Origin: an uncultured Candidatus Babeliaceae bacterium
GTDB taxonomy: Bacteria > Babelota > Babeliae > Babelales > Babelaceae
Assembly (NCBI GenBank): GCA_963704655.1
Contig: OY969927.1
Coordinates: forward strand, 992,001 to 1,056,000
Length of the DNA stretch: 64,000 bases
Reading direction: 5' to 3'
A program made the position numbers and the translations under genes. Shown piece by piece: positions 7,262 through 14,353 of this stretch; within the stretch, counting starts at the first letter, position 1; each line of letters starts with the position of its first letter. The notes under the pieces are model-generated. The model was given only the letters and a program-made list of their open reading frames with translations. It did not search any database and had not been told where the DNA came from.

Positions 7262-9007
7262 ATGATAAGTTTCAAAGATCTTAATCTCTCTCCAGAGAAC
7301 CTACAAACGCTTGAAAAGCTCAATTTTACTGAGCCAACCGATATTCAAGCAAAAGCTATCCCCCTTTTACTTTCTAAATCTATGGATTTCCATGGTCAAG
7401 CACAAACAGGAACGGGTAAAACCCTCGCTTTTGGCCTTCCATTACTTCAACGCATTGATAAAACAAATCGTTTCGCTCAGGCCCTTGTAGTTGCCCCTAC
7501 GCGCGAATTAGCATTACAAATTTGCGACAGTTTAAAACCTTTCGCTCAAGCTGCCCAGATCTCAATTACCACTATTTACGGTGGCAGCTCTATGGAAGAA
7601 CAAATTAGAAACCTTAAACGTGGTGTTCAAATAGTTATCGGTACTCCCGGCAGACTTAATGACCATTTACGCAGAAAAACCCTTGATATTGGTACTATTA
7701 AAACATTAGTGCTTGATGAAGCAGATATCATGCTTGATATGGGTTTTAAAGACGAAGTTGAAGACATTTTACGCCATGCGCCTAAAAACCGCGAAATTTG
7801 GCTCTTTTCTGCAACGGTTAAATCTGGCATTAGTGATTTAATGGCAGAATATATGCACGATACCCAAACAGTAAAAGTTGCAAGAAAAACAGCCGAAGCT
7901 GCAATGACTCAACAATTTTATTGCATTGTACCTATGCGTCAGCGTCTTGCTGCATTACAACGCTTTATTGAAAGCGCGACTGATTTTTATGGTTTTGTCT
8001 TTTGTCAAACCAAAATCTTAACCAGCGAAATTGCTGAGCAACTTATTCGCGCAGGGTATAATGTTGGTGCTTTACATGGTGATTTAAGCCAAGCACAACG
8101 TAACCTTGTTATTAAACGCTTTAAATCTAAAGAGATATCAATTGTTATTGCAACCGACGTTGCAGCTCGTGGTATCGATATTGCAAATCTTACCTATGTA
8201 GTTAACTACTCATTACCGGAAGACTTAGAAAGCTATGTTCACCGTATCGGCAGAACTGGCCGTGCTGGTAAAACAGGTACAGCAATAACGTTTATCAATA
8301 GATCTGAAACTCGTGCAGTATCTTTAATTCAAAAGAAATTTAACTTTACTATTAACCCAATCGATGTTCCTGCAAAAGCACAAATTGTTGCTTCTCGCTT
8401 GAAAATTGCACAAGAATACTTAGCTCAGGTTTCTGAATCACATATTCAGCACCATGAAGAACTCAAATCTTTAGTTACACAACTTTCAGCTGAAGAGTTA
8501 CGTGATATTATCGAAAAAATGGTCTACGATAAATTTATTAAATCTATCGATCAGGAAGAGAATATCAACTTTACTTCTACACCAAAAGAGGGTGGTTTTG
8601 AAAGTGGTCATCGCGGCACAGCAAGCGGACTTCAAGAGTTCTGCCTTGGTGTAGGTGTTGATGATGGCGTTACTCAGGAAGATGTTGTTGAATATTTAAC
8701 CGCTACAAAACTGATAACTGCTGACCAAATTGCTAAAATTCGTGTTATTAAACGCAAAACATTCGTTGAGGTTCCAAGCGCAACAGCTCAACCGCTGGTT
8801 AATGCACTTGCAAATACTTCACTTGCTGGTCGTAAGACACGCATTACTATCGTTGAACCACAAGAAGGTGGAGATCGTGGTGGTTTTGGTGGCGGACGCC
8901 GTGAAGGTGGAGACCGTGGTGGTTATCGTGGAAATCGTGGTGGCGGCTTTGGCGGCGACCGTGGTGGACGTGGTGGCGATCGTGGTGGATATCGCGGACG
9001 CAGATAA
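7262..9007 (+). CDS. deaD: DEAD-box RNA helicase (DeaD/CshA type) with DbpA-like RNA-binding domain and RGG tail
   Basis: AQTGTGKT, PTRELA, LDEAD, SAT, HRIGRTGRAG motifs; Gly/Arg-rich C-terminus. Confidence 0.93.
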   Translation: MISFKDLNLSPENLQTLEKLNFTEPTDIQAKAIPLLLSKSMDFHGQAQTGTGKTLAFGLPLLQRIDKTNRFAQALVVAPTRELALQICDSLKPFAQAAQISITTIYGGSSMEEQIRNLKRGVQIVIGTPGRLNDHLRRKTLDIGTIKTLVLDEADIMLDMGFKDEVEDILRHAPKNREIWLFSATVKSGISDLMAEYMHDTQTVKVARKTAEAAMTQQFYCIVPMRQRLAALQRFIESATDFYGFVFCQTKILTSEIAEQLIRAGYNVGALHGDLSQAQRNLVIKRFKSKEISIVIATDVAARGIDIANLTYVVNYSLPEDLESYVHRIGRTGRAGKTGTAITFINRSETRAVSLIQKKFNFTINPIDVPAKAQIVASRLKIAQEYLAQVSESHIQHHEELKSLVTQLSAEELRDIIEKMVYDKFIKSIDQEENINFTSTPKEGGFESGHRGTASGLQEFCLGVGVDDGVTQEDVVEYLTATKLITADQIAKIRVIKRKTFVEVPSATAQPLVNALANTSLAGRKTRITIVEPQEGGDRGGFGGGRREGGDRGGYRGNRGGGFGGDRGGRGGDRGGYRGRR

Positions 9008-9054: not shown

Positions 9055-9161
9055 ATAATTTTTTAAATCAATTCGATATATAAAGGCTATTGCTTGCCCA
9101 TTTGAAAGAAACTGCTACAAATGCTACTATTTATAATAGTATTATTTTTATGGAGGAAACT

Positions 9162-9590
9162 ATGAAATTATTTAAATTATTTTTGCTTGGACTGATATCA
9201 GCAACTATAGCTCTGCATGCAGATGAAACTCATGCTCAACAAGAAAATAAGAGGCATACTGTCATTTTTCCTGGACAAACGGTATGCATTAAAGGGCATT
9301 CTCGTTATGCAATCAAAAGGGGCAATTTAACCCCAGAAGATTGGCAAAGACGCGATAAAGATCTTGCTGGGGCTCTAGGCTTAACGTATATTCAAAGTTT
9401 TGGTTATGATAAACTGTTTAAGAAACTAGGTTCATTTGGCTGCGGCCCGGTATACTTTGAAGCTAAAAACACAAGTATAGATCCAGTTCTAATTGAAGTC
9501 ATTTTAAATGAATTGAATCAATGCATTGGATATAAACTTAATTATAGCTGTTGGGATTCAACTATTACCGATATCATTATTAATAAATAA
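9162..9590 (+). CDS. Hypothetical secreted protein
   Basis: GGAGG RBS before ATG 9162; signal peptide MKLFKLFLLGLISATIALHA. Confidence 0.75.
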   Translation: MKLFKLFLLGLISATIALHADETHAQQENKRHTVIFPGQTVCIKGHSRYAIKRGNLTPEDWQRRDKDLAGALGLTYIQSFGYDKLFKKLGSFGCGPVYFEAKNTSIDPVLIEVILNELNQCIGYKLNYSCWDSTITDIIINK

Positions 9591-9599
9591 GAATTAATA

Positions 9600-9640
9600 A
9601 ATAAGAAAAAGAGGGGCGAATATCGCCCCTTTTTCTTATT
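9600..9640. terminator. Bidirectional intrinsic terminator
   Basis: AATAAGAAAAAGAGGGGCGA...TCGCCCCTTTTTCTTATT between convergent genes. Confidence 0.9.
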
Positions 9641-9648
9641 AAGCGTAA

Positions 9649-10791
9649 TTAAACTTTAATGTTATACTTACTTCTTAATTGAATTTTTTGTGGTTCCGTA
9701 GCCTCACCTTTTTTAGATACAGCCGCATTCTTTAGTTCTTCCTGGATTTCTGCGTCAAGCGCCTCAAATGCTTCCTCTTCAGTGGCAATATCGATCAACT
9801 GTTTAAGGGAAAATTGATTAATATCATCTTTATATTTCATCACCGTCTTAACAATTACCTGATCAGACATTTCTTTAAAATTTAGAGAAGCTATTTCAGG
9901 TTTTACTGTTGCTGTCTTTAATCCAGTTTTTCCAGCAGCAATTTGACCAAATAAACCGCCCTCTGCTCCAGAACCAATCGTTGTAAATGTCTTTTTAGGA
10001 AGGCCAAGAGTAGTCGCAGTAGTTCCAGGTATTATAGGTTTTACTGGTTTTTTAGTTTCTACTGGCGTTTCTTTTGGAGCTGGTGGAGTATAAGGTAACA
10101 AATTCAATGTTCTGTATTCTTTTTCACGCCATCCTTGAATTTTACTATGAAATGCTGCCTTTCTATCGAATGAATATTTATCACTTGAAATAGTATCAAC
10201 ACTTTCTTCATCATCTTTGATATTTTTTAGACTATCAGGGGATATTTTTCTATCTTTTTCTTCTTTCTTATTCTTATAATCAAGATAAGAACGCAAGTCT
10301 GATACATAATTATCTATAGCCTTTGAAATCTCTTCTTTAGTGCCATCTTTATTAAATACTAACCTAGGCAATTGGCTGCCTAACCCAAAAATGCCAGTTT
10401 TTGGCTTTGGTGAAACATCTGGCTTAGCTTCTCCGACTTTAGGTTTTTGCGGAACGACAGGCGGAGTCTTAGAAGCTGGCTTAATTTCTTTTTCTGCCCA
10501 TTCTTCTTCAGCAACACCTTCAGGTTGCTTTACTTCTTTACCAAGCTCTCTAAGCTTTTTAAGCACGTCACTTTTTCCAAGCGCGGCCTCTAAGCCTTTT
10601 TTAGGCGTTTCTTCAGGTTTAGAAGTTGGTTCACGTTTTTTTAATCTATTTATTGGATTTCTAAGATCTTCTAAAAATTTTTCTGCAGCTGATTCAAGCT
10701 GTGCCAATAAAATCTGTAATTTTAAACTTGTCTTATCTCCGGCACAAAAACTATTACCTAAAAAAAAGATCACTAATAAATATTTTTTCAA
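9649..10791 (-). CDS. Secreted protein with putative WH2/WCA actin-regulating motifs and Pro-rich segments
   Basis: TTG start with GAGGTG RBS; signal peptide; FLEDLRNPINRLKKR, GLEAALGKSDVLKKLR, AEEEW, PPVVPQKP, LFGQIAAGKTGLKTA. CDS is solid; function is inferred. Confidence 0.75.
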   Translation of the reverse strand: MKKYLLVIFFLGNSFCAGDKTSLKLQILLAQLESAAEKFLEDLRNPINRLKKREPTSKPEETPKKGLEAALGKSDVLKKLRELGKEVKQPEGVAEEEWAEKEIKPASKTPPVVPQKPKVGEAKPDVSPKPKTGIFGLGSQLPRLVFNKDGTKEEISKAIDNYVSDLRSYLDYKNKKEEKDRKISPDSLKNIKDDEESVDTISSDKYSFDRKAAFHSKIQGWREKEYRTLNLLPYTPPAPKETPVETKKPVKPIIPGTTATTLGLPKKTFTTIGSGAEGGLFGQIAAGKTGLKTATVKPEIASLNFKEMSDQVIVKTVMKYKDDINQFSLKQLIDIATEEEAFEALDAEIQEELKNAAVSKKGEATEPQKIQLRSKYNIKV

Positions 10792-10800
10792 AAGAGCACC

Positions 10801-13503
10801 TCATTTACTTGCCTCAGCCCAGCTATATCCTTCTGCTAGTGTAACTACAAGTGGTACATTCCAGTCAACAACTTGCTGCATGACTTCGCGCATGACTTTT
10901 TGTGCACGCTTTTTTTGATCTTCGCAAACGGTCACCAGCAACTCGTCATGAATCTGTAATACAATATGCGCATCAAGCTTTTCTTGCTTAAAGGCTTTAT
11001 CCAGCTTAATCATGGCAATCTTCATAAGCTCAGATTGTGTCCCTTGTGCAGGGGTATTGATAGCAATGCGGCGAGCAGCATCATAGAGTGATTTATTACG
11101 TTCATAAATTCCCGGAACATAACGACGTCTGCCCCACAGCGTTTGAACATATCCAAGCTCTTTTGTTTTTTCAACAACTGCGTCCATCCACGTTACAATA
11201 CCCGGATGCTCTTCAAAATATTTATCGATATATTTTTTTGCATCTGCAAAAGGGATATTTAAATCTTTTGAGAGTCCATATGGCGTAAGTCCATACAAGA
11301 TACTAAAGTTTATCCGTTTACCAAGTTGACGCTGTTCACGAGTTACCTGGTTTTCTGGAACATCAAAGATGCGTGCTGCTGTGTGCGTATGAATATCAAT
11401 ATTATGTTTAAATGCGTGCAAAAGCGCCGGATCTTGTGATAAATAAGCCACAACGCGAAGTTCTATCTGCGAATAGTCAGCAGAGATAAAAATATGCCCC
11501 GGGTCAGCTTTAAAAGCGCTCCGGATATGCAGCTGTTTATCGCCTTCAACCATCGTAGGAATATTTTGTAAATTCGGGTCTGAACTTGAAAGTCTACCGG
11601 TGGCAACCAATGTTTGATTAAATGTCGTATGAATTTTGCCCGTTTTTGGATTAATCCACTGGCGCAAACCTTCGATATACGTGCTTTTAAGCTTTGCAAG
11701 TTCACGGTATTTAATAATAAGTGCCGGAACCGGATGAATAAGCGCAAGCTCTTCAAGAACCTCTTGGTCTGTTGAATAACTTGCACGTGAAGTTGTTTTT
11801 TTTGACGTTGGTAACTTTAAATGCTCAAAAAGAAGCTCTTTAAGCTGCTGGGGCGAATTGAGATTAATAGCAAAAAATTGTTGTCCAATTAAGGCAATAA
11901 TTTCATCATGAATTTTTTCTAAATCACGCGTAACACGGGTATTAAGCTCATCAAGCACTTTTGTATCACAAATAATGCCATATTGTTCCATTTCAAATAA
12001 AATAGAAACTATCGGCAATTCTATATCGTTATACAGCGATAATAATTTTTCTGATTCAAGCTCTTTTTTTAATACCGTAACAAGCTTTAACGTTTGATGC
12101 GCATCGGCGGCTGCATATTCAGTTGCAAGCTCTAATGGCACATGCGAAAAGTCTTTAAACTTATTTTTTTTAACAATATCATCGAAACTCAACATGGGCT
12201 CATTAAAATAGGTTTCTGAAAGCACCTTAAGACCAATTCGCTCATTGTCTTTACGCAACAGGCTCGCGGCAACAAGTGTGTCAAAATCAAGTCCATTAAT
12301 GCCAATGCCTGCATTGGCCAAAATATGCATATCAAACTTTGCATGATGAAAATATTTTTTTATCTTCGCGTCTGCAAAAACAGGCTTAAAGGCATCTAAA
12401 ACTTCTTGTTGAGAAAGTTCACCTTTATGCACATGATCAAATGGGATATAGTATGCTTTTCCAGGCTTAGTCGCAACAGAAAGTCCCACTAAACGTGCTT
12501 GGCTCACGGTTATGCCATCTGTTTCGGTATCGATTGACACGGCACCTTCTTGTTTAATCTCTTGTATTACTTGATGCAACGTTGTTGAATCAGTAACGGT
12601 AAGATATTCTGCATGTGGTTTATATTCTCGTTTTTCAGTAACAACAGTTTGTCCGCCTGGCAGCTCTTTAAGTAATGATTTAAAATCATATTTATCAAAA
12701 AATCCGCGCGCTAATTGCCAATCTGCAGGAGAAAAACTGAGATCTTTTTCAGACAAGTGTAAATCTATATAAAGTAATGAGAAAAGCTGTTCACTTAAAA
12801 AAGCTTCTTGCTGTGACGCTTTAAGCAGATCACGCGTGCGTTCTTTTGGTACCTCTTGAATTCGCTCATACAAGTCTTTAAGGGAATCAAATTGCTGCAC
12901 TAAATCTGTTGCGCCTTTTGGGCCAATACCCCGAACGCCGGGTATATTATCTGAGCTATCGCCACATAATGCAAAATAAAAGGGTAATTTTTCTATAGGA
13001 AAACCATAGCGAGTTTCTATTGCAGCTTTATCGAAAGTTTCTTGCTTAAAAGCGTCATATAAAACGATATTACCATCAACAGCTTGGCCGAGATCTTTAT
13101 CTGTTGTTATAAGAACTACTTTGTAGCCTTTTTTTGCAAAATCACGTGCGATACTATAGAGCAAATCATCAGCCTCATAACCACTTTTTTCAACTTGCGG
13201 TAAATGAATCTGGCCCGCAAAATCTTGAATTATAAACTTCTGATCAAAAAGATGCATCGGCGCAGCTTGACGTGTCTCTTTATACTCTTTATACATTTCA
13301 TGGCGCTGTGTTGGCCCTTTACTGTCCCACACCAAAGCCAGATGCTCGGGATTAAAGGTGTCGATAATTTTTTTAACCATGCGACAAAAGCCGTATACGG
13401 CACCAACATGAGTTCCTGATGGCGTTAACATGGGCTTAAGTGCATAAAAAGCTCTATATAAAAATGAAGAACCGTCAATAAGATAAATTGTTTTTTTATT
13501 CAT
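10801..13503 (-). CDS. polA: DNA polymerase I
   Basis: LIDGSSFLYRAF 5'-nuclease, DTETD 3'-5' exo, DYSQIELR and LQIHDEL polymerase motifs; start reset to MNKKTIY. Confidence 0.98.
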   Translation of the reverse strand: MNKKTIYLIDGSSFLYRAFYALKPMLTPSGTHVGAVYGFCRMVKKIIDTFNPEHLALVWDSKGPTQRHEMYKEYKETRQAAPMHLFDQKFIIQDFAGQIHLPQVEKSGYEADDLLYSIARDFAKKGYKVVLITTDKDLGQAVDGNIVLYDAFKQETFDKAAIETRYGFPIEKLPFYFALCGDSSDNIPGVRGIGPKGATDLVQQFDSLKDLYERIQEVPKERTRDLLKASQQEAFLSEQLFSLLYIDLHLSEKDLSFSPADWQLARGFFDKYDFKSLLKELPGGQTVVTEKREYKPHAEYLTVTDSTTLHQVIQEIKQEGAVSIDTETDGITVSQARLVGLSVATKPGKAYYIPFDHVHKGELSQQEVLDAFKPVFADAKIKKYFHHAKFDMHILANAGIGINGLDFDTLVAASLLRKDNERIGLKVLSETYFNEPMLSFDDIVKKNKFKDFSHVPLELATEYAAADAHQTLKLVTVLKKELESEKLLSLYNDIELPIVSILFEMEQYGIICDTKVLDELNTRVTRDLEKIHDEIIALIGQQFFAINLNSPQQLKELLFEHLKLPTSKKTTSRASYSTDQEVLEELALIHPVPALIIKYRELAKLKSTYIEGLRQWINPKTGKIHTTFNQTLVATGRLSSSDPNLQNIPTMVEGDKQLHIRSAFKADPGHIFISADYSQIELRVVAYLSQDPALLHAFKHNIDIHTHTAARIFDVPENQVTREQRQLGKRINFSILYGLTPYGLSKDLNIPFADAKKYIDKYFEEHPGIVTWMDAVVEKTKELGYVQTLWGRRRYVPGIYERNKSLYDAARRIAINTPAQGTQSELMKIAMIKLDKAFKQEKLDAHIVLQIHDELLVTVCEDQKKRAQKVMREVMQQVVDWNVPLVVTLAEGYSWAEASK

Positions 13504-13642: not shown

Positions 13643-14353
13643 ATGAAAAACAAAAAATTTCTTATAACACTTTTTGTAGTACTTTTTGTATCAATCAATC
13701 ATACCTATGCTATGGCCCCAGAAAGCCACACTGGTTCAGATGAGTCAATAATGGAGTTAACTAAAAATAGTCATGGGGGCTCTGATGATTCAATACAAGA
13801 ATTGAGAGATATTCTTAGAACGAGTATACCATTTGACGATGACGATGACGATACTAAGCTCAATAAACGACTTCCAAGAAATTCCATGGAAGACATCATG
13901 GATGAAATCAATAAAGAAACCATAACTTTTAAAAAAAACTTTAAAAAAACAACCTTGAGCCCTGATGCAACTATTGCATTGCGAACTGCCCCCGACCCAC
14001 GCTTTACACAGATAACGTTACATCATTACCGCCTTGAAATAGATGACAAACAAAAACTGCAACTCATCATAGATGAAGAGGCTCAAAAAGATGCTAACAT
14101 TAAAAAATTAAATGAAAATTTCGAACTCCTTCGCACCGCATGCATAGCAACACTATTCCTACAAACAAATGATGGAACGAAAAATCCATTCTTAGAAAGC
14201 CTTATAAGACAATGCAAATTTTTGTTCCAAGATATAAATAAGCTGCCGAAAGATCCAAAAAAAAGGCGTACGGCAAAGGATGATATTCATAAAAAGCATA
14301 TTTTCCCCGCAGTTGAAATACTCGAAGCGGCCTTAAAAAAAGGTTCAGAGTAA
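13643..14353 (+). CDS. Hypothetical secreted protein
   Basis: Signal peptide ending HTYA-M; tandem 15-aa repeat; acidic run; PKKRR basic cluster. Confidence 0.75.
   Translation: MKNKKFLITLFVVLFVSINHTYAMAPESHTGSDESIMELTKNSHGGSDDSIQELRDILRTSIPFDDDDDDTKLNKRLPRNSMEDIMDEINKETITFKKNFKKTTLSPDATIALRTAPDPRFTQITLHHYRLEIDDKQKLQLIIDEEAQKDANIKKLNENFELLRTACIATLFLQTNDGTKNPFLESLIRQCKFLFQDINKLPKDPKKRRTAKDDIHKKHIFPAVEILEAALKKGSE

Follow-up and report, generated by a model that had tools for sequence, protein, structure and literature searches.

The 64,000-nucleotide stretch of DNA analyzed here (the window) covers positions 992,001 to 1,056,000 of contig OY969927.1 (GenBank assembly GCA_963704655.1), which belongs to the single-contig genome (1,298,077 bases) of an uncultured Candidatus Babeliaceae bacterium of the phylum Dependentiae/TM6. 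Directly downstream of polA it holds an intact open reading frame (ORF) on the minus strand, 9649-10791, encoding 380 residues plus stop; its product is called the window protein below, and its parts are placed in Table 1. Here we report that this protein belongs to a fast-evolving family in which WH2 motifs can be recognized. We suggest that it may be a Sec-exported effector acting on host actin, with an N-terminal part that would be a diverged WH2-central-acidic (WCA, or WH2-C-A) module of the WASP type, a reading to which sequence comparison gives, in our judgment, about an even chance of being right. The frame opens with TTG 9 nucleotides past the polA stop codon, and a Shine-Dalgarno (SD)-like GAGGTG lies 6 nucleotides ahead of the TTG. 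Judged by eye, the first residues (KKYLLVIFFLGNSFCA) resemble a Sec signal peptide; homologues start with MKKY, and no lipobox cysteine is conserved among them. The mature protein is rich in lysine (15%) and glutamate (10.5%).

An initial annotation, made from the sequence of this stretch, had described the ORF as a secreted WASP mimic with a WCA module at an unusual N-terminal position, proline-rich motifs and a second WH2. The ORF and every motif string quoted in that description are present exactly where it placed them. A WH2 motif is a short amphipathic helix (LLxxI-type) followed at fixed spacing by LKK(T/V). The first candidate, FLEDLRNPINRLKKR, contains F39-L40-x-x-L43 and L50-K51-K52; MAFFT and hhalign both set it against the WH2 motifs of the homologues, with its hydrophobic residues and LKK preserved. 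It is followed by a C-like amphipathic helix that is basic at its end (KGLEAALGKSDVLKKLRE) and by an acidic stretch with Trp98 (EGVAEEEWAEKE), in which the string EGVAEEEW ends at nucleotide 10498; the WH2-like motif, the C-like helix and the acidic Trp (aa 39-53, 65-82 and 91-98) stand in the WASP order within about 60-70 residues. A loose composite pattern, devised after the motifs had been seen (a WH2-like motif, then 15-70 residues, then [DE]3W), is found in one of the 4633 six-frame ORFs of the genome, which is ORF 9649-10791, and in one of 20000 shuffles of that ORF. The loose WH2 pattern alone occurs in 280 of the 4633.

Further along, a proline/lysine-rich linker holds PPVVPQKP (aa 110-117) and KPDVSPKP (aa 123-130), and a second proline-rich linker (PYTPPAPKETPVETKKPVKPIIPG) holds TPPAPK (aa 235-240). 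The initial annotation listed all three strings and pointed to the binding of PxxPxK motifs by SH3 domains; by eye PPVVPQK is the one strict match to PxxPxK, and KPDVSPKP and TPPAPK do not fit. The second WH2-like motif, GGLFGQIAAGKTGLKTAT, lies directly ahead of the C-terminal domain, about 225 residues from the first and separated from it by a folded domain. Its counterparts are NLLSDIKKGVGLRK in P0010, GLMGQIAGGQSGLRT in P0006 and DIFGAIKKNVELKP in P0011, so that it is present also in the most distant long forms, P0010 and P0011. Pfam WH2 matches the canonical NLLSDIKKGVGLRK of P0010 with E=0.011 and gives no match for the second motif of the window copy.

Family members were sought in 41 related genomes and then, by profile, in 261 genomes of the order. 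Among the 261, homologues are confined to genus g1, apart from one marginal match (G031, E=8e-4). Five of the six g1 genomes carry the family (G000, G001, G002, G003 and G004), and the sixth, G005 (88% complete), is without it. The gene adjoins polA in G004, G001 and G002, and a DEAD-box helicase gene in G004, G003 and G002. Sequence databases added P0004, P0006, P0007, P0009, P0010 and P0011 (the last being the G001 protein), all unnamed or called "hypothetical". Run against 1.84 billion representatives, the family profile gave ten matches at E<=1e-3: nine belong to the family, among them the window protein itself and the C-terminal fragment from G004, and the tenth is P0012, described below. 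A locus search with metagenome data recovered only the contig of P0004, and a search for related loci with the window protein (P0001) over genome contigs returned no match. Identity of the members to the window protein is 26-41%, which marks the family as fast-evolving. A match in G001 (C64, E=6.9e-4) was dropped as a different protein, with a signal peptide, a coiled coil and a phosphatase-like part.

Architecture varies within the family. The short forms P0003 and P0004 have neither a central domain nor a second WH2-like motif, and the G002 orthologue (L014:649-1698(-)) combines two tandem WH2 motifs, DLLGQIQQGTQLRP and DLLQQIQKGKQLKK, with a different, longer helical body and no C-terminal domain. 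In G004 the orthologue is broken into two ORFs that overlap, of 291 and 104 residues (L002:1200-2367(-)). Just downstream of it, a 62-residue ORF (L007, G004:C20:18283-18453) again matches the C-terminal domain (E=5e-15). The split and the extra ORF could reflect gene decay, local duplication or an assembly error.

The family-level evidence for WH2 is consistent across several comparisons. At the position of FLEDLRNPINRLKKR, homologues carry better motifs than the window protein does (LLDSIKKGVNLRK, LLESIKQGAKLKKV, ILDEIKKGKDLRKT and LLGDIQQGVKLKK); the aligned WH2 reads GGILDEIKKGKDLRKT in G004 and SLLDSIKKGVNLRKA in G003 among the genome copies, and SLLESIKQGAKLKKV, SLLGDIQQGVKLKK and SLLNEIQQGGPRLKPV in the database members P0004, P0006 and P0007. 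Pfam WH2 (PF02205) is the top match in six of the ten rows of the family alignment A5 (E 2e-4 to 0.04), at 14-21 bits and so below the gathering cut-off of 23.1 bits in all six, and the G002 orthologue exceeds that cut-off at 35.3 bits. A profile of the N-terminal region, built from four close members and compared with all 177635 PDB sequences, gave eight matches at E<=10, six of them to WH2 proteins: N-WASP (4.7e-7), Spire (5.2e-4), N-WASP twice more (1.4e-3 and 0.037), WASP (0.92) and WAVE1 (2.6). The remaining two are chemoreceptor coiled coils. In the HMMER output the N-WASP alignments continue into the N-WASP C helix. When the family N-terminus was compared by hhalign with canonical WCA modules from other Babeliales, the probability was 93% (P=2.6e-7), the confident part being the 21 columns of the WH2. 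WH2 homology is thereby established for the family. Since the homologues have a recognizable WH2 set in the layout of a WASP tail, the window protein probably tampers with host actin, worn though its own motifs are.

All close members share GLxxxLGxSxxIKK, which is basic at its end, together with a Trp-containing acidic patch that reads AEEEW in the window protein, SEQEW in three members, and SQEEW or DDDTDW elsewhere. The acidic Trp is aligned in seven of ten members and invariant in the four closest homologues; P0010 has EEDNDDW and P0009 an unaligned EQDEWE, and Phe takes the place of Trp in G001 (SEFDEED) and G002 (SNFEDPE). The initial annotation had named non-conservation of LKK and EEEW among homologues as grounds for giving up its proposal, and these data go the other way, with better WH2 motifs in the homologues and the acidic Trp kept in the seven aligned members. 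A hidden Markov model (HMM) built from eight canonical Babeliales WCA modules places six of the ten family members ahead of each of the 4633 genome ORFs, at 5e-12 for G002, 2e-5 for P0005, 3e-5 for P0006, 0.07 for P0004, 0.14 for P0007 and 0.28 for P0003; the window protein, P0009, P0010 and P0011 are unmatched. Four of the six align end to end, from the WH2 through to Trp on Trp. The 65 columns aligned by hhalign, in greedy as in global mode, are likewise collinear and match GLEAAL to GLMESL and W to W. Profiles of the C and A parts alone do not reach significance, and the assignment of these parts is based on order, spacing and aromatic conservation. The canonical WCA HMM weakly aligns the end of the G002 orthologue (...ALLQKALKQRRRAMED) to a C helix. 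An Atg8-type reading of the acidic Trp ([WFY]xx[LIV]) was also considered by eye; it fits P0010 alone (WAEL) and is therefore not conserved. On a further reading by eye, the Trp may belong to a W-acidic motif of the kind recognized by kinesin light chain.

AlphaFold2 (AF2), run with the family alignment, leaves the N-terminal third disordered apart from two short helices, 68-72 and 75-84, that have a low predicted local distance difference test score (pLDDT). This combination of predicted disorder and short helices resembles WCA regions. A short helix (280-285) falls inside the second WH2-like motif, and confident helical domains are predicted at about aa 140-243 and at 297-378; within the family, conservation is highest in the C-terminal domain. 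Fold searches returned generic helical matches for the full model (best Z 7.1) and generic helical bundles or repeats for the C-terminal model (best Z 6.9), Foldseek gave nothing at E<=0.001 for either, and a search of the ESM Atlas produced no usable match. As the fold matches are only generic, function cannot be read from the fold.

Table 1. Positions of the features discussed (rows without a locus name refer to the window; L-numbered rows refer to loci of other Babeliales genomes)
Feature	Coordinates	Strand	Basis
Putative secreted WH2-family protein, whole ORF	9649..10791	-	ORF and translation, family members
polA stop codon and 9-nucleotide spacer with SD-like GAGGTG	10792..10803	-	read from sequence
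Sec-type signal peptide, aa 1-17 (KKYLLVIFFLGNSFCA)	10741..10791	-	by eye
WH2-like motif 1, FLEDLRNPINRLKKR, aa 39-53	10633..10677	-	aligned with canonical WH2 of homologues
C-like amphipathic helix with basic end, KGLEAALGKSDVLKKLRE, aa 65-82	10546..10599	-	conserved GLxxxLGxSxxIKK
A-like acidic stretch with Trp98, EGVAEEEWAEKE, aa 91-102	10486..10521	-	Trp conservation
Proline/lysine-rich linker 1, aa 105-132	10396..10479	-	translation; pLDDT below 50
Central domain, a helical bundle of about aa 140-243, long forms only	10063..10374	-	AF2 pLDDT above 90
Proline-rich linker 2, PYTPPAPKETPVETKKPVKPIIPG, aa 233-256	10024..10095	-	translation, alignment
WH2-like motif 2, GGLFGQIAAGKTGLKTAT, aa 278-295	9907..9960	-	aligned with homologue motifs
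Helical C-terminal domain, aa 297-380	9652..9903	-	conservation; AF2 pLDDT about 90
Terminator-like GC hairpin and T-run, immediately 3' of stop	9612..9630	-	sequence
Textbook WCA module (within L018-L049)	L021:1354-1566	-	WH2/WCA profiles
Textbook WCA module (within L018-L049)	L022:1378-1569	-	WH2/WCA profiles
Textbook WCA module (within L018-L049)	L033:1366-1563	-	WH2/WCA profiles
Textbook WCA module (within L018-L049)	L036:1495-1659	+	WH2/WCA profiles
Textbook WCA module (within L018-L049)	L023:1507-1719	+	WH2/WCA profiles

Proteins with a canonical WCA are widespread across the order. Pfam WH2 matches 32 of the 261 genomes at E<=0.01 (21 of them above the cut-off; 24 of 145 genera) and none of 14 control genomes, and a profile of seven canonical modules finds matches in 29 of the 261 genomes and 22 of the 145 genera, seven of the genomes being those used for training and G000 not being among those matched. 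Many of these ORFs have a signal-like start and a textbook ending of polyproline, WH2, C and A, as in L021 of genome G169 (...RAALLESIRAGQKLKPV...GLMESLAAAMEKRRGSISEEEEEIQEEEDEEEWQD-stop) and, in like fashion, in L022 (G215), L033 (G093) and L036 (G165). A relative of one of the canonical proteins bears the NCBI name "hypothetical protein [Candidatus Dependentiae bacterium]". These proteins and the family of the window protein come from one bacterial order and have in common a signal-like N-terminus and a collinear WH2-C-A. The canonical proteins differ in their textbook motifs (for example ERRxxI, an E/D run and then W at the very C-terminus), in passing Pfam WH2, and in being without the central and C-terminal domains of the family, and the family profile does not retrieve them. 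Placement of the module near the N-terminus, which the initial annotation had called unusual, appears less odd in light of L023 (G154), a canonical WCA near the N-terminus in another Babeliales genome, and of Listeria ActA, whose layout is similar.

The tenth match of the family profile, P0012, is a protein of 389 residues on a 1762-bp metagenome contig. Behind its signal peptide and helical N-terminal part it carries a polyproline run and WH2 motifs, three in number (53 bits), as well as a C helix and a C-terminal DDDDNDDW. Its WH2 and linker share 42% identity over 65 residues with those of G004, and no close orthologue of it was found among the 261 Babeliales genomes.

The layout of the window protein invites comparison with several known systems. 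With the verprolin-central-acidic (VCA) regions of the eukaryotic class I nucleation-promoting factors WASP/N-WASP and SCAR/WAVE it has in common the WH2-C-A order at similar spacing, a C-like amphipathic helix with basic residues at its end, the acidic patch with Trp, nearby proline-rich sequence and disorder. It departs from them in that the module comes right after the signal peptide rather than at the C-terminus, with a degenerate WH2, a short acidic patch and C and A parts that profiles miss; Pfam finds no GBD, WH1 or SHD, and the two helical domains have no informative fold match. In other phyla, Rickettsia RickA and Burkholderia thailandensis BimA are WCA-type activators of Arp2/3 that copy the same WH2-C-A logic, RickA carrying its WCA at the C-terminus and lacking a Sec signal, BimA being a trimeric autotransporter. 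Listeria ActA has a signal peptide, an N-terminal Arp2/3-activating region (acidic, actin-binding and C-like), proline tracts and a C-terminal part that places the protein. The resemblance of the window protein to ActA is one of layout, and the window protein differs in being without FPPPP repeats and without a hydrophobic C-terminal segment or membrane anchor; its own C-terminal part is predicted by AF2 to be a soluble-looking amphipathic helical domain. WH2 motifs also serve as the actin-handling unit of Spire, which was the second-best PDB match of the N-terminal profile, and of Vibrio VopL/VopF and Chlamydia TARP. The G002 orthologue, with its two adjacent WH2 motifs, is like the tandem-WH2 nucleators, whereas the window copy, with two weak motifs about 225 residues apart, is unlike Spire or VopL-type proteins and their three or more close repeats.

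Dependentiae are common parasites of protists, with few members in culture, and the genes by which they manipulate their hosts are mostly unnamed ORFans. The members that have been cultured parasitize amoebae and flagellates (PMC4378268, PMC6561590). For Babela, type II is the sole secretion system that the authors report detecting, and proteins with signal peptides are taken by them to be secreted into the amoeba (PMC4378268). Signal peptides are reported on 44% of the coding sequences of Chromulinavorax, and in the main text of that paper, by term search, the words actin and cytoskeleton are absent (PMC6561590). The genome studied here has two secretins and gave no match for FHIPEP (type III) or VirB4 (type IV).

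Based on these observations, we propose the following model. A largely disordered protein would be exported by Sec from a protist-infecting Babeliaceae bacterium and delivered either by a secretin in a type II-like pathway or in vesicles. Its WH2 motif would hold an actin monomer, the amphipathic basic-ended helix and the acidic Trp patch would dock on host Arp2/3, and the proline-rich linkers may offer profilin or SH3 sites. Beyond these come the helical bundle, the second WH2-like motif and the C-terminal domain, the last of which would probably place or tether the protein, and actin assembly would be promoted at the parasite or its vacuole. Actin binding by the worn window copy, activation of Arp2/3 and passage to the host cytosol are all inferred steps.

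A number of results weigh against this model. Pfam and NCBIfam returned no match for the window protein; Pfam WH2, searched over the whole genome at E<=10, leaves it unmatched, as do the canonical Babeliales WCA HMM at E<=10 and the profile of seven canonical modules (A7). A phmmer search of PDB with the window protein found no WH2 protein, and neither did a PDB search with the whole-family profile A5. Against PDB, the CA-only profile of the family (A6) gave one unrelated match and no WASP-family chain, and the canonical CA-only HMM matched only G002, with E=0.16. The motif FLEDLRNPINRLKKR is degenerate, with Pro for the usual Gly, the linker is one residue too long in both WH2-like motifs of the window copy, and the acidic patch is short, with Lys mixed in; the module is N-terminal, unlike that of eukaryotic WASP proteins. 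Nor do we know of any route from periplasm to host cytosol in this phylum. By score the window protein is not a member of Pfam WH2, and it would work, if at all, in the manner of WASP, WAVE and RickA. Because no model matches it, the case made in the initial annotation would by itself be one of motif resemblance, and it is the homologues that decide. The WCA proposal accordingly survives in part, in the family-level WH2 and the collinear order, but not as a match of the window protein to Pfam WH2 or to a WCA model, nor as significance for C and A. The Pfam check that had been suggested comes out the same way, with nothing for the window protein at E<=10 but a top WH2 match in six of ten rows and a clear pass for G002.

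Statistical support that attaches to the WH2, and is lacking for C and A, is what would be expected if the protein regulated actin through WH2 without Arp2/3, as a nucleator, monomer sequesterer or elongation helper. Such a protein would resemble Chlamydia TARP or Vibrio VopL/VopF. It would use the two WH2-like motifs and the proline tracts, perhaps with self-association through the C-terminal domain, and its acidic Trp would serve another partner. We regard regulation without Arp2/3 as unlikely, though it is the main rival to the reading proposed above. Retention of the WH2-like motif ahead of the C-terminal domain in the most distant P0010 and P0011, the tandem WH2 of G002 and the Phe that replaces Trp in two members all fit it. 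Three observations speak against it: a spacing of about 225 residues across a folded domain is not that of tandem-WH2 nucleators, a single Trp, set in an acidic patch that is disordered and as far from the WH2 as in a WCA, is conserved at 26-40% overall identity, and four homologues align end to end with canonical WCA modules.

The window copy still has F39, L40, L43, its LKK, the pattern of the C helix and Trp98, each aligned with its counterpart in the homologues; this argues against a different view, in which the actin module of the window copy has decayed to relics and the helical domains act on some other target of host or envelope. The ORF is moreover unbroken and flanked by an SD-like site and a terminator, and no other WH2 or WCA gene able to replace it was found in the genome with Pfam WH2 or the WCA profile. 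Decay would explain why the window copy is the only close family member without WH2 signal, and it agrees with a structure model whose confident regions are the folded domains and with the C-terminal domain being best conserved; the split of the G004 orthologue in two ORFs implies that the locus tolerates damage. On balance we consider decay improbable. More improbable still is a chance resemblance arising in a disordered protein rich in Lys, Glu and Pro, with a structural role in the periplasm or at the surface and no link to actin. Its composition (15% K, 10.5% E) and the abundance of LKK-like strings in the genome (280 of 4633 ORFs) would favor such coincidences, and no known fold was found, but independent profile matches to WH2 proteins, a composite pattern unique in the genome and met once in 20000 shuffles, and the spread of canonical WCA proteins through the same order are hard to reconcile with it.

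Returning to the WASP-type reading, the family is likely a variant on the mimicry of WASP by bacteria, of which the literature searched contains no description for this phylum. Searches of that literature combining Dependentiae or Babeliales with actin, effector or WH2 yielded no relevant paper, and none was found on Babeliales proteins with signal peptide, polyproline, WH2, C and A; the statement in the initial annotation that no effector of this kind had been described agrees with this. If the reading is true, one more phylum and a delivery dependent on a Sec signal would join the short list of bacterial WASP mimics. The WH2 signal of the family, together with textbook WCA proteins in about one-tenth of the Babeliales genomes searched, offers a testable handle on host manipulation, and natural variants ranging from canonical to degenerate provide a way to ask which features of WCA matter. 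More tentatively, and with somewhat less than an even chance in our view, Babeliales, with Sec and a type II-like secretin pathway as their only export routes, may widely use secreted WASP-type activators of Arp2/3 against the protists that they infect. The genus-specific architecture of N-terminal WH2-C-A, new helical domains and second WH2 would then form a placed or tethered actin-nucleation machine, which could serve uptake, vacuole remodeling or movement. If so, this would be the first family of actin-assembly effectors in the phylum, delivered without injection by type III, IV or VI systems.

Among neighboring genes in the window, the one at 7262-9007 (+) encodes an RNA helicase of the DEAD-box type with a DbpA RNA-binding domain; the protein ends in a long Gly/Arg-rich (RGG-like) tail conserved within the genus. 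Between it and the gene of the window protein, and convergent with the latter, is a small ORF at 9090-9590 (+) of 166 residues from a TTG or 145 from an internal ATG, with a signal-like N-terminus and no Pfam family; a counterpart adjoins the G004 orthologue (L002:387-836). Upstream of polA on the opposite strand, an ORF of 236 residues at 13643-14353 (+) has a signal-like N-terminus and an acidic stretch, and it matches DUF7636 weakly, below the cut-off (E=0.003).

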